Below, piece after piece: positions 15,963-64,000 of a stretch of 64,000 nt of DNA (position 1 is the stretch's first letter; each line of letters starts with the position of its first letter). Source of the DNA: Rhizophagus irregularis (lineage: Eukaryota); the NCBI RefSeq assembly GCF_026210795.1, contig NC_089429.1:1922001-1986000 (forward strand), given 5' to 3'. Under the pieces are notes generated by a model that saw nothing but the letters and a program-made list of their open reading frames with translations, did not search any database and was not told the origin of the DNA. Position numbers and translations under genes: made by a program.

Positions 15963-17009
15963 CTTGACAAGGCCTGAATCCAATAAATTAGCTGTTAGGT
16001 AAGGTGGAATACGCCATTGGACCTTACCGGTGAGAAATACCCGAGCTAAGTAGACCATTGGTCGTGTCCTGAACTAGTTTCACGAAAAATGAATTTTTTT
16101 ATTTTATAGGCATAATAAATTAATAACATAATGTATAATGATTACAAAACTTTTTATAGTAACATCATGGACGTAACTTCATACAATTTTGACGTATGAC
16201 GTAATTAAAAAATAATCAAATCATTAAAATAAATAAGAATATTAAATAAATTAGCATATTTTTTATTATTCATATATAATTAAAAATAATAACAATTACT
16301 GCTTCTTTTAATTAACAGCATTATTTAACATTTTTCTATATGCAATTTTACTATTACTATTTACTAGTATATAAACGAAGGATATAAATTCATAATGATA
16401 GCAGGTAAACAATTTACTCTAATCTAGTATTTAAAACATTATCAACTAATGTATGTCAATAGGATCAAATTCCATATTATTTTTAACTTAGTATTAGGTA
16501 TATTTAGTTCTTCACGCAATCCATTTTCTCCATCCTGAAAGATTGGATTTTGTAGATCTATAAAATCTTCTAAAATTATAGTAAATTTCGAAACTTAAAA
16601 GCAGTTTTCAAATAAAAAATAAAAATAAAAAGTTTATATTATTTATATTAAGTATATTAAATTTAACAAATGTTTATTATATGTATAAAGTAAAAAATTT
16701 AAAAGTAATTACGTCAAAAGTTTATGTAAAGTCTAAAAATCTAAAAAATCCATATGGCACATGTCATTTATGGCGTCATACGACAATGTGACGCTACTGA
16801 CGGGACACCCCATTCAGGTGATCATCAAAGGTTATAACCTTACGATTTATGTCACAAATGCATAGGTTATAACCTTATATGGGCGGCCCATGGGCCATAA
16901 TTTAATGTCACGTGACCCAATTTTTAATTCTGGCCTGACATGCGCAATTTTGGCATGTTAATTTTGGAACACGTTACATGCGCTAATTACTGTACATATT
17001 ACCCAGATG

Positions 17010-17830
17010 TAACATGCGGTGATTCAGACGCATGTTATTCATCTGTAACATGCGATAAATTGGGCGCATGTTACCTATCTGTAACATGCAGTGATTCAGA
17101 CGCATGTTACGGATGGGTAATATGCGTTAATTCTGGCGCATGTTACTCATTCATAACATGTGCTAATTTGGGCGCATGTTACGCTTCTGTAACATGCGTT
17201 AATTCTGGCGCATGTTACTCATCCGTAATATGCGTTAATTCTGGCGCATGTTACTCATCCGTAACATGCGTTAATTCTGGTGCATGTTACTCATCCATAA
17301 CATGCGTTAATTCTGGCGCATGTTACTCATCCATAACATGCATTAATTTTGTCACATGTTACACTTCTGTAACATGCGTTAATTCTGGCGCATGTTACTC
17401 ATTCGTAACATGCGCTAATTTGGGCGCATGTTACGCTTCTGTAATATGCGTTAATTCTGGTGCATGTTACTCATCTGTAACATGCGCTAATTTAGACGCA
17501 TGTTACACTTCTGTAACATGCGTTAATTCTGGCGCATGTTACTCATTCATAACATGCGCTAATTTGGGTGCATGTTACGCTTCTGTAATATGCGTTAATT
17601 CTGGTGCATGTTACTCATCTGTAACATGCGCTAATTTAGACGCATGTTACGCTTCTGTAACATGCGTTAATTCTGGTGCATGTTACTCATCCATAACATG
17701 CGTTAATTCTAGTGCATGTTACGCTTCTGTAATATACGTTAATTCTGGCGCATGTTACTCATCCGTAATATGCGCTAATTTGGGTACATATTACTGGCGC
17801 ATGTTCCCTACAGTAACATGCAGTAACTCT
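17010..17830 (+). repeat. 36-bp minisatellite (GTAACATGCGTTAATTCTGGCGCATGTTACTCATCC), ~22 copies
   Basis: Direct tandem units seen; translate as a 12-aa repeat. Confidence 0.95.
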
Positions 17831-18749
17831 AGTTTATATTCCTTACTGTAACATACAGTGATTTTAGTACATATTTTTATATCCAAAATACCTCAAAATC
17901 AATGCATATTATATTATAGAATATTGCATATTATGCATTAGAAATATATATAACTTTATTAAAGATGGCTATTTTTTTAAAATCAAAAAAATAATAAAAC
18001 AATAAAAATAACAAAAAAAAAAATAAACAAAAAAAAATAAACAAAAAAAAAATAAAAAAAAATAAACAAAAAAAAAATAAACAAAAAAAAAATAAACAAA
18101 AAAAAAAATAAACAAAAAAAAAAAATAAACAAAAAAAAAAATAAACAAAAAAAAAAAATAAACAAAAAAAAATAAAAATAACAAAAAACAAATGATTTGC
18201 ATAGTATATTTTAAAATTTATAAGTAATTAATTTTATGATCATGTAAATCACTTTACTGATGCAAATATAATAATCATTTGTTTTTTCTTATTCCTATAT
18301 ATTTAATTTTTTCTTTTTCATTTTTTATTTTTTTTATTTTTTTTTTTATTAATTTTATTTTTTTTATAATTTTATTTTTTTTTTTTGCTAGTTTTATTTT
18401 TTTTTTTGTTAATTTTTTATTGTTTTGCTATTTTTTTGCTGAAAATACTATTTCAAATAAATATAACAATTTAATATGAATTTTCTACTATAATATGTAG
18501 TAATCATGGCACATATTCCAGATGCTGTATATTATTTATTAATAAAATATGAAGTAATTTAGCATATATTCCAATGTAAATTTATAATGTATTTACAACA
18601 ATTCTTGCATATATTCCTGATGTATAATATGCAATATTCTATAATATAATGCAGTGATTCTGGTAATACTTAGTTTAAATATTTGATGTTTTAAACATAA
18701 GAACATGTGTCAGAAATCAGAATCATTGTAGTAAGGAATATGCATCAGA

Positions 18750-19460
18750 GTTACTACTAGGAAACATGCGCCAGAATTAGTGCATATTACAGATGAGTAA
18801 TATGTGCCAGAATTAACGTATATTACAGAAGCGTAACATGCGCCCAAATTAGCGCATGTTACGAATGAGTAATATGCACCAGAATTAACGCATATTACAG
18901 AAGCGTAACATGCGGTAAAATTAACGCATGTTACGGATGAGTAACATGCGCCAGAATTAACGCATGTTACGGATGAGTAACATGTGCCAGAATTAACGCA
19001 TGTTACGGATGAGTAACATGCGCCAGAATTAACGCATGTTACGGATGAGTAACATGCGCCAGAATTAACGCATGTTACGGATGAGTAACATGCACCAGAA
19101 TTAACGCATATTACAGATGAGTAACATGTGCCCAAATTAGCGCATGTTACAGAAGCGTAACATGCGTCTAAATTAGCGCATGTTACGGATGAATAATATG
19201 CACCAGAATTAATGCATATTACAGAAGCGTAACATGCGCCCAAATTAGCGCATGTTATGAATGAGTAACATGCACCAGAATTAACGCATGTTACAGAAGC
19301 GTAACATGTGGCAAAATTAACGCATGTTACGGATGAGTAACATGCGCCAGAATTACGCATGTTACGGATGAGTAACATGCGCCAGAATTAACGCATATTA
19401 TGGATGAGTAACATGCGCCAGAATTAACGCATGTTACATCTGGATAACATGTACAGTAAT
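18750..19460 (-). repeat. Inverted copy of the 36-bp minisatellite, ~19 copies
   Basis: Reverse complement of the 17010-17830 array. Confidence 0.95.
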
Positions 19461-19797
19461 TAACGTATGTAATGTGTTCCAAAATTAACATGCCAAAATT
19501 GCGCATGTTGGGCCAGAATTAAAAATCAGGTCACGTGACATTAAATTATGGCCCATGGGCCGCCCATATAAGGTTATAACCTATGCATTTGTGACATAAA
19601 TCGTAAGGTTATAACCTTTGATGATCACCCGAATGGGGTGTGATGGGATGGGAAAATTCCATTTTTATAATAAATGAATAAATCGGAATTTTTGCTGTAT
19701 TATGGAATTTTCATAAATTTTAATGATTTTATTCCAACACGTGATAATTAACCAATCATAGATGTGGATTAGCGTATTTTAAAAAATTTTTTAAGGG

Positions 19798-21975
19798 ATG
19801 AAAATGAAATTTATCAAAATGCCTCCAACTTCAACGGTTACTGTTTTTTCGCGTGCACGAGAATTTTCTGAAGACTTTTTTGCGGATAATGGAAAACTCA
19901 TGTGCCATTTTTGTGATCATAGTATTAATTTTCAAACAAAAAATACAATTACTGCTCATATAGGTTCTAAAACACATATTCGTAATAAAAATGAGAAAAA
20001 AGAACAACAAATAAAAAAAAGACAACCAACTATTCAAACTATCCTTAATGCATCTGAAATTAAAAAAACTGCTGTAAATAATTTAGTAGATGCATTTGTA
20101 ACAGCTGATATTCCATTAGAAAAAATAGATAAACTTCAAAATTGGTTGTGTGAAAATTGTAATGAAGGAGGCTTTATTCCAAAATCAGATACTTTGCGTC
20201 GTGATTATTTACCAAAATTATTTGAAGATCATGTTAATCAACTCAAAGAATATTTTCGTGGCAGACAAGTTTCAATTATTATAGATGAAACTACAGATAG
20301 TAAAGCACGAAGTGTAGTTAATATACTTTTTAGCTATAATGGTGTAACAAAATTAGTTCATGTTGATTATTTAGAAAATGTTAACAATTGTACAATTGGA
20401 CAACTTTTAATTCAAACTTTGGTTCAATGGGGAATTTCTTTTGATCTACCACAACTAATTGCATCAGATTCTGCAGCCTATATGAAGAAATGCTATCGTG
20501 ATGTATTAAAACCACTCATGCCGCAACTAGTCCATCTGCCTTGTTTAGCACACATATTAAACCTTATTGGGTTAGTATATTTTTTATTTAATATAAATTA
20601 TTAATACATTAAAAAGTAATTTAAAATATTTTTATTTTTTAGAGAGGCGTGGGTGTCAATTAATTATTTTCAAGTTGTGCATCAATTACTTGCAAATATC
20701 AAACAAACTTTCGTCTATAGTAGAAGTCGAAAAGTACGTTACATATCATATCTTCAACGTCAAGGAGTATCTAATCCAAAAAATATACCTTTATCTAATA
20801 CAACAAGATGGAATACTTGGTTTCATATAGCATTTCATGTATATCAAAATTTGGATTATATTCGTGGATTTTATAATGAAGAAGGCAAAGAAAATTCAAC
20901 TCCAATAATTGAAAAGATAAATTCAGCTTTCACAGACCAACAAATCAATGGGCGTATTGAAATATATTTAACATTTATTCAGGAAAATGCACAGCAATTT
21001 GTAGCTGATCTTGATTTTTTTTAACAAGAAAATAAACCAATGTTTCCATTTATTGAACAAAGATTACAACAGCTTGAAGCACGAATAACTATGGGAAAAA
21101 CTATGACTAATGTTGGATCAACTATGGATTTAGTATTACAAAAATTTAATTTTCCTTTAACAGCATTTTGTCCAGTATTTCAACAAGCATATCACGCAGC
21201 TTACAAAAAACTTGAAGATCATGTATTACGTTCTTTATTTAGAGCTGTTCAAGTTTTTGACCCACGATTTTTATCATTAACAACTGCTAATCGAGATATC
21301 TACTCCTATAAAATTATTAGAGAACTGGCTAATCCATCAACGTTTCTTATTCAAGAATAGAGTTTGGAATCGATTAAGGTTAATCGATTAATTAATTGAC
21401 TAAGACGGTTAATCGATTAAGGTATCTCAAAAATCGGTTAATCGATTAAAATTATCAACCCATAATTCTGGTCAAATTATCTAATGCGGCCCAGAGCTGT
21501 GAATTTTTGGTCACGTGTTCTCCGAACTTGGAAGAATTTGTATTAATTTTTTAATGATAATAATAATAAATAAGACTTTCCTATAACTAAATTTATGATC
21601 AAAAACAATTTGGTGCAATCTGCGGTCAAAAAAAAAAAAATTTTTAATATTTTAATATTAATCGATTATTAATCGATTAAGGTTTTTTGGTCGGTTCCAA
21701 CCTCTATTCAAGAATGGTCAATTTATGTCAATATAAATTTAAATCTTATAGAATTTTCTGAATTAAATGAATTTTGGGATAAAGTTTCATTACAACTTCC
21801 TCTTTTAGAAAAAATAGCACAAAATTATATATGGTTGCCAATCTCTTCCTGTGCGGTAGAAAGAAGTTTTTCTGCATATAATAAAATTTTAGATGACGAT
21901 AGACAAAACTTAAGTCCAGAATCACTTAGATTTCTTACTATGATGTATTTTAATAACCAAAATAGTGATAAATAA
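19798..21975 (+). pseudogene. hAT transposase pseudogene (BED-like Zn finger, DDE core, hATC dimerisation domain)
   Basis: CHFC..H finger; IIDETTD, SDSAAYM, CLAHILNL, TRWNTW; intron 20571-20642; premature TAA 21022-21024; after MITE removal continues FWDK..LPLLEKIA..PISSCAVERSFS to TAA 21973-21975. Confidence 0.9.
21358..21706. mobile_element. hAT-type MITE nested in the hAT transposase
   Basis: TIR TAGAGTTTGGAATCGA / TCGGTTCCAACCTCTA; perfect 8-bp TSD TTCAAGAA. Confidence 0.92.
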
Positions 21976-50620: not shown

Positions 50621-53006
50621 ATGGAAATAATATCCGATAGAGAAAATATTACTGACCAAGAAAATATTGACGAATTTCAAATTGAAGAAGTTTCCACTTA
50701 TCCAATAAACAATAATATTTTGTATCGTGAACGTGTAAATAAAGTCACTAAACGTAGCTTCAACTATGTAATTATAAAAGAAGGTGTTTATCCTAATGGA
50801 ACTCAAACTGGACCAAAGAGTCTACAAGATTCAGTAATTTGTAGTAGTACCAGCAACAACAAATGAAAAAAAAGACCAGTTCAACAATATAAGATTCCAC
50901 ATGGTTATATTGTAGAAACAACTTGGGGACGTGCATCCAAAAAGAAGACTATTCGTTGTGAAATTGATTATATTAATGAAATACCACAATTTCGTATTAA
51001 ATATGGCTCCAACTTTCAATATGTTGTTTTTTTGAGCAAATCTCCATCTGATGCAGCATATAATTATGAGAGAGTATGTACTATATAAATTTTTTACTAT
51101 ATAATACTAATTATTAATTAATTGCAGGTATTATTCCTTGCATTTTTCAGGCTTTAAAACCAGAAACAAAAGCTACTCTTTCAGGTCCTCTTGTGTTTGG
51201 ATTACAATTAAAAAGTGTAAAAAAAGCACGTGAATCCAGGAAAAGAGGCAATTTAATTAAACCAGCCATCAATTGTACTTCATCAACGCTTGAAAAACGT
51301 GCAAAAAAAATTGCATCAAAAGTGCGGGCTAGTTTTAATAATGATATCAAAGGAGTTTATCACCAATCTGACGAAATTGTATTAAAATCAGTTGAATTTT
51401 CAGTTAATAAACTGGATTTTCAATTAGATTATGAAGAAGGTGAAAATCAAATGGAAAAAGGTCATCAACTTCAATCTATAGTGAAAGCTATAGATCAAGG
51501 ACAAATACCAAGAGATTCTTATCGAGATTTAGCTGCTGCAAGCATCATTTACCACGTGAAAATACTGTTTCTAATGAGCAAATTGCAATTACCAAACATA
51601 TGAATAAAATAATTAAATTTTCGTTGGTGAATATGAAAGATAAAAATGAATTAAATAATATTACATCTCAAGAACCAGATATTACGAACCCTGAGATTGT
51701 ACAAGAAGTTATTAATACTATGGGATTAGGAATTCGTCGTAGTGCAAAAGATATTTTGGTCTATCTAATTCCTCAATTGCAAAAACAGCAGATCTTAAAA
51801 TCATCAGATCCAATTATACATCTGCGTGTTTCTGGAGATGGTAGAAACGTTGGACGGAAGATCAAACATGTCATGGTGACATTTATGATTTTAAACCATG
51901 AAAATCGACATCACCATGCAGATTATCATTACACTGTGGCGTTATATCCTGGTACTGAAAAATATGATACGCTTAAATTTATGTTAAGTCTCTTTATTAA
52001 TGAACTAAAATCATTCAAAGAAAATGGGTTAGAAGTCTCAGGAATTTTGTGGAAATTTGAACTATACTTCAGTTCCGATTGGAAATTTTTGGCTATTTGT
52101 CTTGGATTAAATGGCCCTACTGCAAACTATTTTTGCCCCTGGTGCTGTTGTTCAAAGAATCAAATTGGAGATTTGAATAAAAATTGGTGTATTGAAAAAA
52201 GTATAGATCAACTTATAACAAACTATAATGAAATCAACGGACATATTAATCCTCCTCTCTTTAGTATGATTCCAATAGAAAACATAATCTTTGATGAATT
52301 ACATGCTCTCTTACGAATTACTGATAGACTCTGGGAATTGATGCTTGCAGAAATCCAAGAAAATGGTTTGTTTAATGATCTGACACGAAGTGTTATTTTG
52401 GGTGAAATGCAAAGATTAAAAGTGTCTTTTCACTTCTGGGAAGATGAAAAATCTCACATTTGGAAATATACATCTCTTATGGGAGATGACAAAAAAACTG
52501 TTTTGCAGTTTTTTAATTTAAAATTACTCTTCAAACCTTCTCGTGCAGAATTAATTCGTAAGCTTTGGGATGGATTTTATGAATTGTATTGTGCCCTCCG
52601 AAATAAAAATACAGATCCAGCACAATTAAAGCAGCAATCTCTTGAGTGGTTATCTCTGTTTCTCACTCCATCACAAGGAAATCCTTCTCGTCCAAAAATA
52701 TATGTTCGAGGATTATATATGCCAAATCAGATAACCCCTTATATGCATGCATTGGTTTATCACGGGTGGGAACTTTTAGAAAAGCATAAAAGATGGGGTT
52801 TTAAAGCATTTTCTTGTTCTGCTGTTGAGAAAAAGAACCATAATCAAGTCTCTACTTTTTTTCGTAAAACACTCAAAAATGGTGGTGATTTGCTTAAACG
52901 AAAATCCGCAATACAGGAGATAATAGAATATGAAAATAGATCACTTTATTTTAATTACAATGTATTATCCAAATCTCCAAAAGTTAAGAGAATTCGCATT
53001 AAATAA
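50621..53006 (+). pseudogene. FYR-like domain + RAG1/Transib/Chapaev-like DDE transposase
   Basis: SGDGR, SSDWKFL, FCPWC, DELHALLR, TPYMH..VYH, SAVEKKNH; intron 51074-51150; premature TGA 50864-50866; frameshift ~51541. Confidence 0.75.
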
Positions 53007-53885: not shown

Positions 53886-55173
53886 GCTGATGGGTAAAAG
53901 AGTGAACGGCTGTTGATGAATAAAAAGTTAATAAATTTGACTATATAATTAATTAGTTTCATATTTACTATTAGAAAAAGCTGGTTTTTAAATACTAGTA
54001 CCGTAACTATATAAAACTTTACAAACAAAACGCGTCCAGCTCTTATAAAATGTATAAATGCAGTTCTTCTTCGTTAAACTCTATGAAAAGAGATATTTGT
54101 AAGTTATTTTCAATAAAAGTTTTGACTTATAATCACACAGCTTTATCATTTTCTTCACCTTCAGAATCCAATGGGTTTTTGCCAAATCTAATGGGTATTT
54201 TTTTTTTATTAGGGTGTTTTGAGGTGTTTACGAGGTATTCTTAGGTATTTAGACGAGGATCAACACGTTTATTGACCAATAAAATTTGAAAATTTGTCGC
54301 ACATGAATTCCTAAATAGGGTCCAAAATCTGCAGATCGGCGGATATGCACAATATGATAGGATCAGCGGATAATAATAAAAACTTAACTATGAGACCGTG
54401 ACCCAAAGGTCACACTTGGCTTATATCAATAAGTAAAATAGCTGGGAACAAACCACTTCGCTAACTACGTTCAGTTTATTTGCAATGTTCATTTGGGATG
54501 TTCATTTGAAATCGTTGGTATTCATTCTGACCTGGGACGCCACATATTCGATATTCTCCAAAGTCGTCGGGCTGGTAGTGTGTCTCGCTAGCGCTCACCC
54601 CACCTCAGCCACGGCCTCGCAGTACCTACATCCCCCTTCCGTGGGGGTATGACTCCCCATATATCTGTCCATATCTGTCCCCATATCTGTCCCATAAATA
54701 TATAACCAAAAACCAGAAAACAATAGAAAAGGAAGCAAAAGAAGAGAGAATAAGAGGGGGGGGGCAGATGGGACAAATGGGACAGATATTTCAGAAATAT
54801 AGGAAAGGACATCCCCCAGAAAAAGTTTTATTTTTACCCCCCAAAATGCGTCCCATCGGTCCCGTCTGTCCCAAAAAATCTGTCCCACATTTCTTAGCCT
54901 CCAATCGGCTTTTCGAACTGATAACAGGTAGGTCAGCGGGTAGGTTTATATCTTCGGTTAGCGGGTTGATTACTTTTATGTAAAGCGAACGCAGTGAGCA
55001 AGTAAGCGGGTAATCTGCACTTCTAACATACTCAGGTAAACATATTACTCTGACATGCAAGTATAATCCCTAGAAGGTCTGTAGAACCGCAGGAGGATAA
55101 CCGGGTAGGAGCGCGGATCTTTGGAAAAAATACATTCGGCAATTGAAGATTAGGTAACTATAAGTAACATACA

Positions 55174-55689
55174 ATGATAAACTTACACGCCGCCACTTCT
55201 CTTGCCGAAGACCTCGGACTTGATCTTGTAGACATCTATGGAATCCGTAAATGGATCCAAATGCGGGCATCGCCTCTCAACGACCCAGACATAGTAAGAG
55301 AAATGGTCAGAAACCTTCCGATCAAAGAATTCGGAAAACATCTCAAGATAAACAGACTCTGGTATAACTGTTGTAAAGCCGAGTTGTGGAAGCGGCATAA
55401 AGAAGCCGAAGAGGTATACAAACAGGCAGTAGACTACTACAAGGAAGCCATTGACAATTTCAATGAAGCCGATCAGAAAAAATACACCAGGTTTGCAGGG
55501 ATGGTAGTAATAGAAAGAGCACTCCTCAGATGCGGCTTTATAACGCAAGAGTCCGACTGGGAGAAATGGACTCAAATAACGTACAACATCCAATTGCTTA
55601 AGGAAGGTCGCACTCTTGATGACTCGGATGATGAATCAGATGATGGAGAGATATCTCTCGATGACTCAGATGATGAAGAATACTTTTAG
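55174..55689 (+). CDS. Hypothetical protein with acidic tail (element gene)
   Basis: Intact 171-aa ATG ORF; stop lies 9 bp from the convergent neighbour. Confidence 0.6.
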   Translation: MINLHAATSLAEDLGLDLVDIYGIRKWIQMRASPLNDPDIVREMVRNLPIKEFGKHLKINRLWYNCCKAELWKRHKEAEEVYKQAVDYYKEAIDNFNEADQKKYTRFAGMVVIERALLRCGFITQESDWEKWTQITYNIQLLKEGRTLDDSDDESDDGEISLDDSDDEEYF

Positions 55690-55698
55690 AAGGCAGTA

Positions 55699-56019
55699 CT
55701 AATCCGTCTTCCTCTTTTTTGCCTCCTTAAGGCATTTATCAATACACTGTTTACACGCATCATCGGCCTCTAAAATTTTCTGCTTAAGTTTTTTGCATTG
55801 CCGATTGTACGCCGTCTGATGTCTTTTAGCCGCGGTTTCTTTTTTCTTCTCCTTAGTTTTCTTTTTGATAACCCAGTCTATCCCAGTAAAAGTATTCTTG
55901 TGCATACCACAAACTGTGCAATCACCATGCAGCCGGTAACGCCCATTTGTGGTTATATCTTGTATTTCACTAGCAGTCTCGGTTTCTTTCTTACACTTTA
56001 GGCAGTAAAATCGTGTCAT
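55699..56019 (-). CDS. Small basic zinc-ribbon protein (DUF5679-like)
   Basis: ATG 56019; FYCLKCKKET...NGRYRLHGDCTVCGMHKNTF followed by a Lys-rich tail. Confidence 0.7.
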   Translation of the reverse strand: MTRFYCLKCKKETETASEIQDITTNGRYRLHGDCTVCGMHKNTFTGIDWVIKKKTKEKKKETAAKRHQTAYNRQCKKLKQKILEADDACKQCIDKCLKEAKKRKTD

Positions 56020-56063
56020 CTTAAGATTTGAAGTCCGAAATCTTTCCTTTAATTTGTCATAAT

Positions 56064-57435
56064 ATGTCGCATTTAGAGAATTATTACAAATACTACAATC
56101 TCTCCGGAGTACCAGCACGAATTCTAAAAGGTGAGGAGCACTACAATCTATACAAAAAGCCCCTAAAGGAAAAGTCATCAGAGCGTCCACGAGTAGTTGT
56201 ATGGAAACCAAATGCGACGCATCAGGCAGATCTCGCAGAGATGCCAGTCGACCCCAAAGGATTCCACTATTTCCTCGTAGTGGTAGAAGTCGCGAGTAAA
56301 CGAGTTGACGCAGAACTCCTAAAGGATAAAACCGCAAATAGGGTTCTCAATGGATTTGTCAAAATCTACAGAAGAAATCGCATTAAGCCACCAACACATC
56401 GAATAGAGACAGACTCTGGATCAGAATTCACCAATGATCAGGTACGTGATTTTTTCCTGAACAGCCTAGGGGTGATGATGAGGTTCGGAGAACCAGGAAG
56501 ACATAAACAGCAATCATACGCTGAACGAGCTATCCAAGCTATTCAAGAACCTCTTCTCAAACGAATGGTGGCACAGGAGTTGAAGACCGGGGTGACATCC
56601 GTGGAATGGTCAGAAGATTTCCATGATGTAGTTAATAAAATAGATAAACTCTGGCAAAGAAATCCCCCAGACATTCTGACTGGGTCACCCAAAGTGTCAA
56701 AAAAGACGGAACTTCTTTCTGAAGGAACGCGTGTCCAAGTAAAGTTAGATGAACCTATCTCAGTACTCGGTAATAAACTTCATGGAAAATTTCATACAGG
56801 AGACATAAGATGGAATCCCAATATCCGTGTCATCAAAAAAATGATCCTCTCACCCGACACTGGTAAAAAAATGGTCTATCCTACACATCCTACACATATC
56901 TTACATATATCGGGTACTCAAAATGTAGAAAATCATACACAAATAATACACATATCATACACATATCGGGTACTTATATATATAGTATACCTATCAGGTA
57001 CCTGATATATGTATGATATATATATTAGTACCTGATATGTGTATGATATGTGTATTATTTGTGTATGATTTTCTACATTTTGAGTACCCAATATGTGTAA
57101 GATATGTGTAGGATAAATCATTTTTTTACCAGTGCGAACAGCCTCCTACGTATCTTCTTGATGGGCCACACGGGCGTCTAGGTGTATCCAGATGTGCGTA
57201 CACCCGAAAAGAGTTGCAGATTGTTCCAGAAAATGAATATCCCCCACCTGACTTTGTGATAAGAGGGCAACCCGAAAGATTTGTACCTGAGCGGATACTC
57301 CGGCATCGCATCAGGAAGGGTCAAGACCAGTATCTAGTCAAGTGGGAATGATACCCAGATACCAAAGCCACTTGGGAACCCGCTGACTGGTTGGAGGAGG
57401 ATGTTCCCGATTTAATTTGCAAATTTTGGGAATAA
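56064..57435 (+). pseudogene. rve-family DDE integrase with C-terminal chromodomain, disrupted by a MITE
   Basis: HQADL, ETDSGSEF, AERAIQAI; frame restored after MITE removal (SPEQPPTYLL..YTRKELQIV); chromodomain FVPERIL..YLVKWE*YP..ATWEP; TAA 57433-57435. Confidence 0.9.
56858..57134. mobile_element. CACTG-ended palindromic MITE inside the integrase
   Basis: CACTGGTAAAAAAATG / CATTTTTTTACCAGTG; 3-bp TSD CGA; related to 32812-33106. Confidence 0.92.
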
Positions 57436-57449
57436 AAAATAAATATTCC

Positions 57450-58181
57450 CTATTTTTTGTCTCCTCGATTCACGTCAGAAACTATCGGGATAAAAACATT
57501 CTTCTCATTACAAGTAAGGGCGATATGTTTACGTGATTCATGGACATCATAATTGTAACGTTTCAGACACGTTCGGCTCAATCCAATCTCCCTATGCTTG
57601 TAATCGCTTAAAACCGCGAGATTCTCAGTGATTACACAATCAGGGGTTAGTTTGATTAACACACCTTTTACCATGCCGAATGTCCTACCAGAACCCGGAG
57701 CGCTGGATATGTTATGTGTAATACTCTTGTCGATATCCAACCCTAATTCCTCAGCGGCTTCTCTCTGAATAAAAGACGCGTTAGCACAGGTGTCTGCTAA
57801 ACACTGAATTGCTATCCCATTGACCTCCCCATCCAGCGCTAAAAGATCTTTAGTATTCTCCAAACGAGCTATGTCAATATCCATCGGGTCATCTTCCCTG
57901 ATATCCTCTTCTTGTTTTTCCTCAACTAGGTCTTCCGGAATCTCTGTACTTTTACGAACAGACTTTAATTCTTCCCGAAGAATCTCGCGGAGTAATTTCC
58001 TAAAATCTGCAGACCTTAATAAACTTAATGAATCATTTTTGGTGACAGCTTTTATAAGTGTGGACTTACTACTAGTAACCTTCACAGGAATCTTAATAGG
58101 AGTCATTTTAACTGATTTTTTTGGAACAGATTTAAGAAGTTTCGAGATACTTACACCCTTATCCGAGTTTACTTTTTTTTT
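57450..58181 (-). CDS. Retropepsin-like aspartic protease in the -1 frame downstream of gag
   Basis: GEVNGIAIQCLADTCANASFI and EIGLSRTCL motifs; ends at TAG 57450 with no RT domain following. Confidence 0.85.
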   Translation of the reverse strand, partial: KKKVNSDKGVSISKLLKSVPKKSVKMTPIKIPVKVTSSKSTLIKAVTKNDSLSLLRSADFRKLLREILREELKSVRKSTEIPEDLVEEKQEEDIREDDPMDIDIARLENTKDLLALDGEVNGIAIQCLADTCANASFIQREAAEELGLDIDKSITHNISSAPGSGRTFGMVKGVLIKLTPDCVITENLAVLSDYKHREIGLSRTCLKRYNYDVHESRKHIALTCNEKNVFIPIVSDVNRGDKK

Positions 58182-59647
58182 GTACTTCGAACCGCACAAA
58201 TCCGAAAACCACCTTCCTCATCGGGAACAAATTTCAAGTCATCAAAACTTGCGGTATTAGTATCAATATCCATAGCATCATCATTAAGATCGAGGTTTCT
58301 CATTGCTCAGGCTAATTCCAGATCATCGCGTCTATCTTTAGCCTTCTGAAGTCGCTTTGGAAATCTTTTAGACGTCTCATATCCCATAATAAGATCAATA
58401 ACATGTTGATCATCCTCACTAGTCCATTCAGGAGCATCAGGGTCATCACCAACATCATGATTTACATAACCATCATCCCAATCAGGATCCTGATGATCCT
58501 GAACAACACGTCTCTGTGGTTTTGGTCGAACAGGTTTAATCTGTTGTCTATAGACCGGTGGTGGTTTAAATGCTTGTAATTGTTTAAATTGCGCCTGGAA
58601 ATTCTTGGTAAGTTCCTCGGCCTGTGTCTTAAGCAATTCTTGTAATCGTTCTTAAGTAATAACGTCTGTCGACCTTTGCATTACAGCACCTTCGTGTGGA
58701 GTCACAGGATGAGTATAGCCAGCCAATTCCTCTTTTTTAGCCTTTTCAATACCCTGGCGCCTTTGTAATCCATAGAACATTTCGCCCTTTCATCGCTCAA
58801 GATCACTCAATCTATCGATTAATATATTAAGAGGTGCCGCCCCGATTCTGGAAGCTTCAATAACGTTTTCCGGCAAAAGTCCTCTATAGAACTGGTCAGT
58901 AACCATAATTCGATTATATCTTACAATATCCCCAGCCCTCTCAACTCGCTTATAGTAAGATCGAACAGGTTCGCCTTATTCCTGGTAAAGGTTACTAAAT
59001 CGTATCTGAAGTCTTTCTTCCACGACGGTTGGAAAATTTGTGCGCATAGGCATAAATGCTTGATCCAGGAGAATCCCCTGTAAGACTATCGGTTGATTCT
59101 GAACAGCAGCATTAAATGGACCTCCATGATTTCCCAACCCATTAACGGGTTGATGAGTAGGACGTCCGCCCGCACGCCTCCACTGCTCTTCAACTTTAAA
59201 ATTTGATCTAACGATATCAGCGCGTGATGAGAAAAATGCATCTCCAACAGTTACCGCCGCATTACCTGCAATCCTTGAATATACATCAGCATCAGACCCG
59301 GGTAAGTAAGTACCAACATGTAATCCATTAGCAACCTCAGGAACAGCCAAAGCTCTGAATGCTCGGCGAGTGGCACCGGCTCCACCATTTGCAGCAGCCA
59401 CTAACCGAATATTCGAGAGTTCCCAATTTTTTCCAGTAAGTTCTGCATCAAACCACCTCGCCGCTTCATCTCTCATACAGCTACGAAGAACCCCCATCGC
59501 TCTCACCCAACCAGGAGGCGCACCAGCATCGTCCAATGGATCAATACCAACGGTATTAATATACCCTAAAAAGTTATCAATAAAAAGATTAAGATCTTCA
59601 TCTTCCTGACCATGAAATATGGGGGCAGCTATACCAACGGCAGCCAT
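58169..59647 (-). pseudogene. Ty3/gypsy-type Gag (capsid) with four premature stops
   Basis: PIFHGQEDEDL..F, AARWF, MHR-like LYQE*GEPVRSYYKRV, QFYRGL; same-frame stops at 58976, 58790, 58652, 58307; natural end STKKK-TAA at 58169. Confidence 0.8.
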
Positions 59648-60333
59648 ATCGTATTTTGTGGATGGTTGAGAGGAGGTGGAGGAGGGTTCAATTGTCTAAT
59701 CCGAAACCATTGTACTTGGATACGCAGAGCGGCTATTTGTTGGAAAAGTCGATTCCTAAGACATCCCAATGTCCGAATTCCAAAAAGAACCCGATTATTG
59801 GCATATACAAGCTGATTTCGTATTGCATCACGCTCGCCTATAGCTCTATTACGTTCACCTATAGCTCTATTACGTTCTCCTCTCATAAGATTATATTGCT
59901 GCTGAAGACGACGATTAGTCATCCGCATACCACCAAACTCACGTTCCAATTCAGCCAAATTAGCTTCCAAACCAGTAATAGTATCTTGTACGATATTTAG
60001 CTCATCTTGTGTAAGACCTAACAAACCTGTTTGAACCTCGAGTTCATCTTGTAATTCATCGCGTTCTTTTCGAGATCGATCACGTTCTGCTTTTAATATA
60101 TCGCGTTCTTCGTATGTTTCACTACAGCGATGAATTAATAAATTAAGAGCATGTTTAAGACGATGGTTTGCATTTTGTACATCTCGATTAACAACCATGC
60201 GATCACTAACAGTTAAAAAATCTGTTAGATCCTTAATTACCGCAACTAATGGTATATTATTCATATCACGCAAATCCCTAAAAGGCGGTCCAGTAGGCTC
60301 TGAAGGAGTATAAATTGCAATTGGTGTCGACAT
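59629..60333 (-). CDS. Coiled-coil protein overlapping the gag start (possibly the gag N-terminus separated by an indel)
   Basis: 234-aa ORF with heptad repeats (GERNRAI) and a poly-Pro tail; overlaps the gag ATG by 19 bp. Confidence 0.65.
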   Translation of the reverse strand: MSTPIAIYTPSEPTGPPFRDLRDMNNIPLVAVIKDLTDFLTVSDRMVVNRDVQNANHRLKHALNLLIHRCSETYEERDILKAERDRSRKERDELQDELEVQTGLLGLTQDELNIVQDTITGLEANLAELEREFGGMRMTNRRLQQQYNLMRGERNRAIGERNRAIGERDAIRNQLVYANNRVLFGIRTLGCLRNRLFQQIAALRIQVQWFRIRQLNPPPPPLNHPQNTIWLPLV

Positions 60334-60364
60334 CGTATTTAAACTAAGTTAGAATAAAATTCAA

Positions 60365-61587
60365 ATGGATCTTTATGTATACAATTTGGACGAGTACACA
60401 ACCGACTCGAGACAGGTAATGAGTTTGCTCCATCATGGCCTTTCCGTCTTGCCGTAGCAGGAAGTTCTGACTCGGGTAAGACAACTATGATCATTAATTT
60501 GTTAATGGGAGACAAGAAGGCAAAGGAGGATGGCGAAAGGTACATATTATGTGATGCGGTAATTCTAGTTGGCAGATACCTCGATGAACCAAAGTGGGCA
60601 GTCGTACGTGAATTTTTCAAAGAAGAAGAAATTCTGTTTACCGCAGTATCCCATAGTGAGATTCCAAATGTTAAGGACTTCAACTCCACCCAGGCTACTG
60701 TGGTAATCTTCGAGGATTTGATGGATGCGCCTAAAAAAACCCAGGATCTCATCACTGGATTTTTTACACACGGACGACACAAAAATATTTCATGTATTTA
60801 TGTGGCCCAAAGATTCTTTACCATTCCCAAGGCTATTCGTGAAAATGTGAATTATATTTCCCTACATGGAGGTCACAGAAGTTTGACCGATACTAAGAGG
60901 ATTATCCGCCAGTATACAGAAGAATCGGAGTCACTAGCTCCAGTAATCGATGACCTTACTCTACAACGCGAATTTATAGTATTTGATCTTAGAAGATCCA
61001 AGAGCGATCCGTTATCTATTCGGGTTAGATGGGATACTAGTCTCAGTTCAATCACTGATCAATCCCCGTTCGATCCGAGTTTGAACCTAGTTCAATCCCT
61101 GTTCGATCCAAGTTTGAACCCAGTTCGATCCCCGTTCGATCCGAGTTTGAACCCAGTTCGATCGAAGTTTAGTCCCTATGGCCAGAAAGCCGTAGCTGAA
61201 GCAAAAAAGTCCTCCCAGCTAATCGAGTTTGCTCGGGAATATCCATCACCTAAAGAGAGAAAACACCTCCTCGTATCCGGTGTTATAGCTAAGAATACAG
61301 ATACCTGGATTAAGTACGTCTTTCGGGAAGCCTACAGACTATCTGGTAAGACCCTGGGATCAGACTTCCAAAACTTCTTAGCAAAAGTACGGGATAGGAC
61401 CACAAAGGCTGAAATTCCAAAACCTGAGACCGTAAAGGAGTTATTCTCCCGATATGAAGTCCTGAAGTCTAGTTACCCTTTGGATAATAAAAAATTAATA
61501 GAAGGCATCGGGGTCCTTTTACAGATCTTTTCTAAGGGTCATATGGACCGTCGAGCATTACGAGTAGGGATCAATAGTATTTTGTAA
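60365..61587 (+). CDS. A32/FtsK-HerA-like DNA packaging ATPase with C-terminal extension; probable indel near the 5' end
   Basis: Walker A AVAGSSDSGKTT (60451-60486, in frame upstream of the tracked ORF), Walker B VVIFEDL, GRHKNISCIYVAQ and IRENVNY; ATG 60365 is in another frame up to ~60415. Confidence 0.85.
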
Positions 61588-62131
61588 GAATCTCGCGAAG
61601 TTCTTCCTCAGAAGCCCTAAGAATCATGGCGCTTTTTTTACGTCCTTCGAAGTCAATCCGTAGCATCATAGCTTTTAACCCAATAGCTCCTAAGGCTCGA
61701 GAAGCAAAGTTCTTAGTCATCGGATTTCTTACATGACTTACATAGTTCTCATAGAATGTAGTAAAGGGTTCGTCAATACCATCTGGGTATGTATTCTGTA
61801 AGAACTGATATAAGGCAATTTCCCCACTGTCACATCCAATGGCTATAAGCTGTTCAAGAAGCCACTTCCTAGTATCCTCGTATGAATCTCTGTCCATAAT
61901 TTTCATATCAAGTCTTTGTGTGAATAATTGTGTAAAATCCGCATTACTTGCCCGACGAATAATCTGGACCAACTTATCCCTGGCAAGTCCCAAGGCTTGT
62001 AAAGGTTCACTCTCGTCGCCAATCTTCTTTATAATCTGTCTATACAACACGCTGGATAATCCTCTATATGCCGCTTTTGCAGAGAATACTCCACAGTTCT
62101 GACACTGGTTTATTACGATTGATGTTGACAT
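61571..62131 (-). CDS. Hypothetical protein, possible C-terminal winged-helix DNA-binding domain
   Basis: Intact 186-aa ORF; FTTFYENY..NPMTKNFASRAL resembles D5/RFX-type wHTH; overlaps the ATPase stop. Confidence 0.55.
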   Translation of the reverse strand: MSTSIVINQCQNCGVFSAKAAYRGLSSVLYRQIIKKIGDESEPLQALGLARDKLVQIIRRASNADFTQLFTQRLDMKIMDRDSYEDTRKWLLEQLIAIGCDSGEIALYQFLQNTYPDGIDEPFTTFYENYVSHVRNPMTKNFASRALGAIGLKAMMLRIDFEGRKKSAMILRASEEELREILTKYY

Positions 62132-62283
62132 GGCTATCTTTCTTTGATTATTCGCTCACTTAGTATCGTTCACAATCTTTTTTATATATTGTTATCTTTA
62201 AATACCTGTCATTTGTAGAAAAAAAAATAACTGGCATTAAGGGATCAATCGTTGGAAAGACCGGAAGACCGGAGGACTGACCA

Positions 62284-62868
62284 TTAGGAAGCGCAGTCCT
62301 TGCACAACTTGTCCGTTAAGTCACTCGGGCTTACAGGCATGAGACATTCCCTACACAACTCAATATTAAGCTCTGCAAGTCTCGGGGCATGGTCCTCCAA
62401 AGTTCGTGGACGACCGGAAGGACCGGAGGAAGGTGTCCCATTAGTCGTATCCTGCTGTAAGATAAAATCATCATATTCATCTTGGTCAGCCTGAATAGCG
62501 GCCCTGATTTGTTGTATATCATTGAAAGTTAACCGCTGGCCATCAAGATTTTCCTCATTATAGCGTGTTTCATTGATGATTTCCTCTATAAGCTCCTCCT
62601 CTTCAGAATGAACAAGGTAGTAGTCCTCGACTACCTCGTAGTCACTCTCAACCAGTCTATGATACGTTCTAGTACCGTGTTGAATATAGCGTCCTGTATC
62701 TGTATTTAAATATACAGGTTGTTCCTGGGGTGGAGGCAGTGCAGTTTGTCTACGGATAAGCCTTCCATTGATATAATCATGGGATTCCATAACTATTCGA
62801 TTAAAGGTATCTCCACCAACACGGATTGGACGTCCGGTTATAGGATTAGTTATATAAGGGTATGACAT
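62284..62868 (-). CDS. Protein with two NPxTGRxI repeats (viral 2-cysteine-adaptor-like) and a C-terminal CxxC..CxxC
   Basis: ITNPITGRPIRVGGDTFNRI and YLNTDTGRYIQHGTRTYHRL; CRECL..LCKDC. Confidence 0.65.
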   Translation of the reverse strand: MSYPYITNPITGRPIRVGGDTFNRIVMESHDYINGRLIRRQTALPPPQEQPVYLNTDTGRYIQHGTRTYHRLVESDYEVVEDYYLVHSEEEELIEEIINETRYNEENLDGQRLTFNDIQQIRAAIQADQDEYDDFILQQDTTNGTPSSGPSGRPRTLEDHAPRLAELNIELCRECLMPVSPSDLTDKLCKDCAS

Positions 62869-62975
62869 GTCTTTTTTCTGTACGTGTCTACATACCTAAT
62901 TGTTATCTTCAATTTACAATAACCAAGTGACATCGTCATCAGTCCTTGTCAAGGCAAACATGGCATAGTAGCCTT

Positions 62976-64000
62976 TATCTTTATTAAATTTATTTATCGA
63001 ACTTACAAAAATAAAACAAAATTTTCAAAGTACAAAAAGAAAAATAAAATTAACTAAAAACAAAACTATATAGTCTCCAAAACAGTAATAAAGCTATAAA
63101 ATTAATTCAAAAAGGAAAAAATCGCATAACACTAAAACTATCCTGATCTTCCGCCTAGATATATTCCAACCTAAGAAGAAGCAACTATGCAAACAAACCA
63201 ACGAACAATGCGCCCATTATTAAAATCGACACACCACCCTGCTAAAGCTGTTAGTAAGTTGCACCGTTAGACGACCCATAAAACCCGAATAGTGATTAAA
63301 CCAAGGCAAACCATATTTCAACGAGTTCTTTAAATAATCAACGTCGGAGTCACGTGTGGCGTCGGAAAGGGTCGGAGGAGGTAAAGTTGAGAAAGGTAAG
63401 TACGTAGACTTTGGCAAATTTGAAGGCCGAGAAAGTTTGAGTTTATGAGTAATATTCATCGCGTCTTCCCATTTAGATTTATCATAGGAGCGCGGTAGCC
63501 AAATTCGTTTTCTAATCTTTTGGATAAAGTGATTGTGGATAGCAGAGATAATCTTCATCGCAGAGTTACGTGGAATAGAAAGTTCTTCAAAAAATTCTAC
63601 AAAGGATTTTGGAAGGCAGCCACGGACGAGGCTATATGAAGTCCAATTTGAAGAAGAAAAGGACCAACAAGGAAGAGATTTAAAGTTGTTAATAATTAAA
63701 GAGGGATCTTTCTTAACGAGATCACCAGCTTCTTGGAGTTTGTTGATAAAGTGATGTTGGTACGAGAGGAGAATCTGTTCCATAGCGATTCGTCTACATT
63801 TGCACATAAACAAGTGCATGAAATCTTCCTTGGAGTCGAGGCACGAACGACACAATAAAATGTCGATATACAAGTCCGGGCGAATTCTTTTAAGATGTTC
63901 CAAGGTAGGCAAATCTTCCAAAAAGAGTTTGAATTTAAAGGTGCGATGAAAGGAAGCATGAGCATGAGTAAATGAAGCATCATGCTGAGGTTCAGAATTT
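62976..64000 (-). mobile_element. 3' end of a non-LTR retrotransposon (LINE): ORF2 C-terminus ending at 63220 plus 3' UTR
   Basis: zf-RVT-like LPTLEHL..CRSC...EDFMHLFMC and RIWLPR; T-rich 3' UTR ending in AATAAA-rich sequence; ORF is open to the window edge. Confidence 0.8.

Follow-up and report, generated by a model that had tools for sequence, protein, structure and literature searches.

The DNA studied here is a 64,000-nucleotide (nt) stretch of the Rhizophagus irregularis genome (contig NC_089429.1, positions 1,922,001 to 1,986,000; the window), in which positions 54562 to about 62950 are a decayed, right-truncated copy of a repeated Polinton/Maverick-type DNA element of Glomeromycotina. 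Between its integrase and its A32-like ATPase the element carries gag and a retropepsin frame. Our preferred reading, to which we give a probability of roughly 55%, is that this is a Polinton with Gag and retropepsin for jelly-roll genes, building a Gag shell that the ATPase fills with the element's linear DNA. A reading made earlier from the letters alone (the original prediction) had named a gag, a protease without reverse transcriptase (RT), an opposite-strand integrase 14 nt away, an A32-like ATPase and a Zn-ribbon protein, all of which are present. The parts of the window copy are as follows.

54562 to 55173, unstranded: left terminus, likely the left terminal inverted repeat (TIR), starting AGTCGTCG; a TIR is seen in relatives L031/L042.
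55174 to 55689, + strand: 171-residue open reading frame (ORF) with an acidic tail, no Pfam match above cut-off.
55699 to 56019, - strand: Zn-ribbon protein (DUF5679, E 3e-17).
56064 to 57435, + strand: rve integrase (E 2e-10) with a C-terminal chromodomain (piece at 57136-57435), without the N-terminal HHCC motif.
56858 to 57134, unstranded: foldback miniature element of 277 bp, a secondary insertion in the integrase, with CACTG...CAGTG ends and a 3-bp target duplication.
57450 to 58181, - strand: retropepsin reading frame (Asp_protease_2, E 2e-7), -1 to gag, ending without RT.
58173 to 58181, - strand: run of nine A (A9), likely the slippage site linking Gag to protease; the sole run of at least eight A in the gags examined.
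58169 to 59647, - strand: Gag with a predicted two-lobed capsid (CA) fold and beta-rich insertion, no CCHC knuckle, and four internal stops in this copy.
59629 to 60333, - strand: coiled-coil ORF of 234 residues (293-441 in relatives), overlapping the gag start by 19 nt.
60365 to 61587, + strand: A32-like packaging ATPase (Pox_A32 above cut-off) that bears an additional C-terminal domain; in this copy a frameshift lies close to its start.
61571 to 62131, - strand: small protein, likely winged-helix (D5 C-terminal-like), kept in relatives; an Atlas lead.
62284 to 62868, - strand: NPxTGR-repeat protein with C-terminal Cys pairs and two copies of the motif.
62950 to 64000 (boundary approximate), - strand: 3' end of a long interspersed nuclear element (LINE), found by six-frame reading, which truncates the element and lies outside it.

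This gene order recurs in relatives, at 30-60% identity. A scan of soil metagenome contigs with an ATPase alignment gave 62 loci, of which 19, from 11 lineages, extend 1.6 kb or more upstream of the ATPase and were used for counting gag. In 18 of the 19, representing 10 lineages, gag adjoins the ATPase in the same orientation, and gag-pro lies between ATPase and integrase in other copies, as had been predicted; gag is present in all 14 loci with 2 kb or more upstream. The recurring order is Zn-ribbon (-), integrase (+), protease (-), gag (-), coil (-), ATPase (+) and winged helix-turn-helix protein (-), with Gag identities of 31-79%. Spacing is also kept: the integrase-protease gap is 24-49 nt in 6/6 loci and 14 nt in the window, and in 9 of 10 loci the coil ORF and the start of gag share 16-19 nt. 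The position of the Zn-ribbon gene is conserved in L010, L024, L031 and L044. The distances measured on Gag and on the ATPase are correlated (r 0.49-0.58, p 0.004). The ATPase shows up to 93-94% full-length identity to many Rhizophagus irregularis proteins, all named Gag homologues come from Rhizophagus, Entrophospora or Diversispora, which places the host among the arbuscular mycorrhizal fungi, and a scan of viral contigs with ATPase, PolB and Gag gave no match. As a separate observation, L026:106-1079 lacks integrase and Zn-ribbon between the left ORF and the protease.

Such an arrangement might arise by chance nesting of a truncated gypsy element in an ordinary Polinton, and the window copy does hold two secondary insertions, the miniature element and the LINE. 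Against this, order and orientation are identical in 10 lineages despite Gag identities as low as 31%, and the gap (14-49 nt) and the overlap are nearly constant. No direct repeat longer than 19 nt and no LTR-like (long terminal repeat) repeat surrounds gag-pro in the window, in agreement with the original prediction, which had likewise argued against a chance insertion. No RT family was found in 111 Gag homologues (240-863 residues) or in 23 long representatives scanned; the longest of the best 150 Gag homologues has 893 residues. Based on the recurrent order, the constancy of gap and overlap and the lack of a flanking LTR-like repeat, we reject chance nesting, which is hardly credible here. 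Gag-pro is a stable module of the element.

The right half of the element was reconstructed from relatives, as no PolB or helicase match was found anywhere in the window. It had been noted earlier that an RT or a canonical capsid set beyond the LINE would lessen the novelty of the element; the relatives carry neither there, and instead encode a protein-primed polymerase and a helicase. The polymerase, of 624-641 residues, is encoded in L010, L019, L032, L042 and L059, and PF03175 was found in 35 of 51 sequences. Its structural model (pLDDT 86) matches phi29 polymerase (E 1e-11; Z 20.9, root mean square deviation [rmsd] 4.4, 340 aligned) and has an OTU fold at residues 106-207, with the Cys kept in 50/50 and the His in 51/51 sequences; no exonuclease motifs were recognised. 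The model identifies a protein-primed PolB with an N-terminal domain-vOTU-palm layout, and the position of the N-terminal domain suggests that it is the terminal protein. A D5/SF3 helicase is encoded in L032, L042 and L030. Searching solved structures by sequence was uninformative for both PolB and the ATPase.

Single contigs join the two halves, L010 spanning Zn-ribbon to PolB and L042 spanning gag to helicase and TIR. L031 and L042 are 99% identical in their overlap and together tile the element, whose size is about 11-14 kb. At the left end of L031, 123 nt match exactly, as reverse complement, the DNA just beyond the L042 helicase, which shows a terminal inverted repeat; the position of the outer end in L042, giving a repeat of about 800 nt, is a guess. 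Two kinds of variant were seen. L010:10513-11021 and L019:5584-6459 keep only a helicase remnant after PolB and are deletion derivatives. In L023 and L025:2151-5681 a coil-gag-ATPase core stands with a 1176-residue polymerase with an endonuclease VII insert, replacing the short PolB and helicase; this polymerase was named from motifs, and Pfam matched only its endonuclease VII insert.

By its features, the element is a Polinton except for the jelly-roll capsid set, and it is not an LTR retrotransposon. On the Polinton side it has the protein-primed PolB (in relatives), an rve-chromodomain integrase, a TIR beginning AG and an A32-like ATPase. Polinton TIRs begin AG, with a 6-bp target-site duplication, and the window end of the element reads AGTC. 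The integrase is intact at 363-364 residues in relatives, with an intact Chromo domain in L010 (E 6e-17) and no Cys in its first 50 residues in 4/4 relatives. On the Ty3/gypsy side it has a Gag with the predicted CA fold and a retropepsin; RT, RNase H and LTRs were not found, and the protease frame closes 14-49 nt short of the integrase gene that converges on it.

In L010 and in the L031/L042 tile every ORF of at least 250 residues is assigned otherwise, and no gap between the terminal repeats exceeds 229 nt, so these copies have no room for a major capsid protein (MCP) of the double jelly-roll type. No gene of the size of a virophage MCP is present in the tiled copies either. Profile searches gave no Pfam, PHROG or NCBIfam match to a penton, and there was no Pfam match to an adenain/Ulp1 cysteine protease among 24 element proteins (small ORFs not folded in either case); the sole cysteine protease seen in the element is the vOTU in PolB. 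The original prediction of a DNA element that recruited a Gag/retropepsin module stands, with no jelly-roll module in the tiled relatives. Its further suggestion, that Gag came in place of the jelly-roll module, is most likely right as a gene swap in those copies, and replacement in function is our inference.

The first 223 residues of the window Gag have no Pfam match, and we accept its identity because intact relatives confirm Gag. A structural model built from 44 sequences (pLDDT 71) has as its best Foldseek match the CA domain of PEG10 (E 6e-3, TM 0.77 of target) and as its best viral match ORF1 of a fungal metavirus (E 0.03). In a wide VIA search the best 35 matches were all retroviral, retrotransposon (Ty/Copia), Arc or PNMA capsids, and several span both lobes. 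Z was 9.1 against both PEG10, at rmsd 2.4 over 85 aligned positions, and HERV-K Gag, at rmsd 6.6 over 177. Thus the Gag is predicted to fold as a two-lobed retroviral/Ty3 capsid, with a beta-rich insertion at about residues 70-170; Atlas gave no answer for it. The RNA-binding CCHC knuckle is missing in 109 of 111 closer homologues, and a more distant Gag group carries it (10 of 141 new representatives). Sister Gags P0226, P0231, P0384, P0390 and others combine the same beta insertion with one CCHC knuckle, and some CCHC-bearing sisters have a similar upstream coiled coil, possibly marking a donor or sister element. An integrase-like piece seen by eye in P0497 was unsupported on checking.

In 11 of 12 loci (5 lineages), and also in the window, the protease lies in the -1 frame relative to gag, and this frame is open from the A run near the end of gag; for the twelfth, L062, the premature stop of a decayed gag was used. 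In all six gags examined the A9 run lies within the last 15 nt. A D-x-M-D-I/T motif stands twice in the window, close to the end of Gag (58263-58282) and immediately ahead of the protease domain (57874-57893), and recurs in relatives, a possible cleavage signal.

Six lineages retain both lobes of CA, the protease and the junction from Gag to Pro. Between lineages the CA region has synonymous divergence (dS, 0.86-1.39) above non-synonymous divergence (dN, 0.46-0.67), near saturation, and in the recent pair L044/L018 the CA changes are 5 synonymous and 0 non-synonymous. These data bear on another account, in which the element either has no capsid and is a self-synthesizing transposon or relies on a jelly-roll helper to package it in trans, and Gag-Pro is long-held cargo of non-structural use, for example interfering with LTR retrotransposons. 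Family members do carry cargo such as F-box genes, gag in one recent pair (L031/L049) is under weak selection, and the accessible text of PMC7805220 reads Glomus Polintons as having lost their capsid. However, cargo genes differ between copies while coil-gag-pro is constant, and the retention of lobes, protease and junction speaks against it as well; we consider this account distinctly improbable. F-box genes are variable cargo in many copies (L010:6266-6790, L032:2125-2841).

The packaging part of our reading comes from the ATPase. Its motifs are intact (Walker A Lys 44/44, Walker B ED 45/45, Arg 44/45), it stays adjacent to coil-gag across two different polymerases (L023/L025 versus L010/L042), and, according to the accessible text of PMC4028283, ATPase loss in known Polintons mostly accompanies capsid loss. 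Taken together, these points suggest that gag-pro most likely replaces the jelly-roll module, with the ATPase packaging DNA. Alternatively, Gag may form its particles by co-assembling with a nucleoprotein complex at the core, made of DNA plus terminal protein and integrase or of element RNA, leaving the ATPase another job, such as DNA translocation in replication. Ortervirales shells are known to assemble around their own nucleic acid, a CCHC knuckle is kept in the sister Gag group (2/111; 10/141), and the ATPase bears an extra C-terminal domain with no assigned role, for which Atlas gave no answer. Yet the ATPase belongs to the A32 packaging family, with all motifs intact, and remains by coil-gag while polymerases swap, so we regard co-assembly as unlikely. 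A 33-nt tandem repeat in the ATPase linker (window 61059-61163) varies between copies.

If the ATPase does fill a Gag shell, the cycle might run as follows. The excised linear DNA of 11-14 kb would be copied from its ends by the protein-primed PolB and the SF3 helicase, as proposed for mavirus. Gag would be made in excess, with a minor Gag-Pro fusion arising by slippage at the A9 run, and the retropepsin would stand in for the lost adenain in maturing the shell. Loading of the DNA would fall to the ATPase, which is transcribed divergently from the coil-gag-pro unit, and the chromodomain integrase would insert this DNA. Particles could spread through the cytoplasm that hyphae share, or pass between fused hyphae. 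By rough estimate, 13 kb of double-stranded DNA at phage-like density needs a cavity of about 40 nm, which is tight but possible; this is close to the size of Ty3 shells. We propose only tentatively, with somewhat less confidence, that the whole is a cross-realm virus, in which the A32 motor of a double-stranded DNA Polinton replicon packs protein-primed linear DNA into a Gag capsid of retrovirus type that retropepsin matures.

Several observations weigh against packaging into a Gag shell or against parts of the case for it. Filling by a packaging motor is not known for any CA-type shell. No Foldseek match of the Gag model reached E 0.001, and its Z-scores fall in the range that the tool calls common for helical proteins; given such weak scores, we base the CA assignment on the uniformity of the structural matches. 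Downstream of the A run no stimulatory RNA structure was found (z -0.9 to 0.6, 6/6), which would fit structure-free slippage by ribosome or RNA polymerase, and in one lineage (L018/L037/L044) an ATG overlaps the gag stop, which makes reinitiation an alternative to slippage. Strict co-divergence of Gag and ATPase is unsupported, as trees over 10 lineages share 1 of 7 splits, indicating recombination or poor resolution, and gag and integrase distances give r -0.31 (4 lineages). The gag of the recent pair L031/L049 is near neutral (dN 0.042, dS 0.049). For one relative of the ATPase, L050, the adjoining 1955 nt hold no gag. In Table S1 of PMC4028283 the ATPase is missing from 2 of the 3 Glomus rows, and P_Pd1.1 is entered as another ATPase-only element. 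As to L050 itself (L050:693-2690), its ATPase is more distant (41%) and its upstream ORF unrelated; it perhaps belongs to another Polinton family.

We placed the left end of the window copy at 54561-54563, and not at 54580 as first predicted, because contigs exit at 54558-54563 into unlike flanks, with a depth step there (runs X1, X10 and X11; 3/4 runs). Contig depth is more than 10x higher in the block than in the left flank in four DNA-like runs, a depth that is not a copy number, and GC is 0.416 in the block versus 0.314 in the left flank. The first ~85 nt of the left terminus are strongly conserved between copies and are followed by variable short repeats; the window copy has no right TIR. 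Decay, which the original prediction did not mention, affects three genes. The gag has four in-frame stops, the integrase is broken twice, by the 277-bp foldback insertion and by a stop at 57349, and the ATPase has a one-base frameshift near its start, its Walker A lying upstream of the listed Met. The arms of the foldback element are a 108-nt inverted repeat of 94% identity, and its empty site is present in runs X1, X10 and X11 (3/4 runs). The winged-helix-like ORF had also been predicted; it is conserved in relatives and gave an Atlas lead on L010 (Pox_D5-like, 0.87), and we keep it as putative at the level of that lead.

Left of the element, the window holds an intact 468-residue ORF (51600-53006) with no Pfam match. 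Long frames on opposite strands (16928-17851 and 18710-19387) have Cys-rich 10-residue tandem repeats, and an ORF at 19795-20604 resembles, by eye, a hAT/BED-finger transposase fragment.

The original prediction of a possibly undescribed class does not hold, as the element is of Polinton type, Glomus Polintons are already tabulated, and Gag and retropepsin labels appear in a published legend. Table S1 of PMC4028283 includes Glomus Polintons, 11,954 and 11,019 bp long, in which MCP, penton and protease are all missing. Polinton-1_GI, P_Gi1.1 and P_Gi1.2 share the host group, the 11-12 kb size and the lack of MCP, penton and cysteine protease, with an ATPase in P_Gi1.2 (PMC4028283); they differ in that Gag or retropepsin is not mentioned in the accessible parts of their descriptions. 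Our element is likely this Glomus/Rhizophagus Polinton family, matched by description only. The accessible text of PMC7805220 states that an MCP was "not yet" found in G. intraradices, that of PMC11952901 reports Maverick expansion in Glomerales without the word "gag", and that of 10.64898/2026.06.19.733378 groups Rhizophagus A32 ATPases with Maverick-Polintons. The legend of Fig. 5 in Starrett et al. 2021, "MELD viruses (and related elements)", uses labels for Gag, retropepsin and S3H, and a legend of the same paper names a Rhizophagus PolB (PMC8502044, legends; preprint 10.1101/697771). The Gag-labelled element there is probably the present family, most of whose members lack the nucleocapsid knuckle, a point of difference. 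Section 3.4 of that paper, in its accessible text, does not discuss the Gag element, capsid replacement or a frameshift. A Gag-bearing Polinton was likewise not found in the accessible text of PMC11296320, PMC10120064, PMC3671162, PMC6431247, 10.1101/2025.06.16.659975 or 10.64898/2026.10.13.758929, and full-text literature searches, which leave subscription journals and Repbase outside, gave no capsid replacement by Gag among the titles and abstract openings of the matches listed. The family is therefore no unknown class and was probably glimpsed before, though not analysed.

Capsid modules define virus realms, and a Polinton with such a swap would, if confirmed, join DNA-virus and retroelement lineages in one genome and be the first motor-filled CA shell. 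It would also explain the apparent lack of a capsid in Glomus Polintons, a testable answer to a gap stated in the accessible text of PMC7805220. It might give DNA a way to move within fungi whose cytoplasm is shared and in which such elements expanded, and a CA shell holding 11-14 kb of double-stranded DNA with its own integrase would be of interest to capsid engineers.

Among known systems, the gag-pro of Ty3/gypsy elements (Metaviridae), PEG10 and Arc are alike in the CA fold, retropepsin and -1 frame junction. The element differs from Ty3/gypsy in having no RT, RNase H, LTR or HHCC, in its integrase being a separate opposite-strand gene, in its beta-rich CA insertion and usually in the absence of CCHC. 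Bidnaviridae provide a precedent for a polinton PolB joined to an unrelated capsid (accessible text of PMC11161782) but are single-stranded, parvovirus-derived and without a Gag shell. Mavirus-type virophages share the protein-primed PolB with its terminal protein-vOTU-palm layout and reduced exonuclease, the separate SF3 helicase, rve integrase, packaging ATPase and Zn-ribbon (accessible text of PMC11161782 and PMC3671162), whereas they have their own jelly-roll MCP, minor capsid protein and cysteine protease and depend on giant viruses. Judged from its genes, the element would work like a mavirus/Polinton replicon with the morphogenesis module of a retrotransposon.

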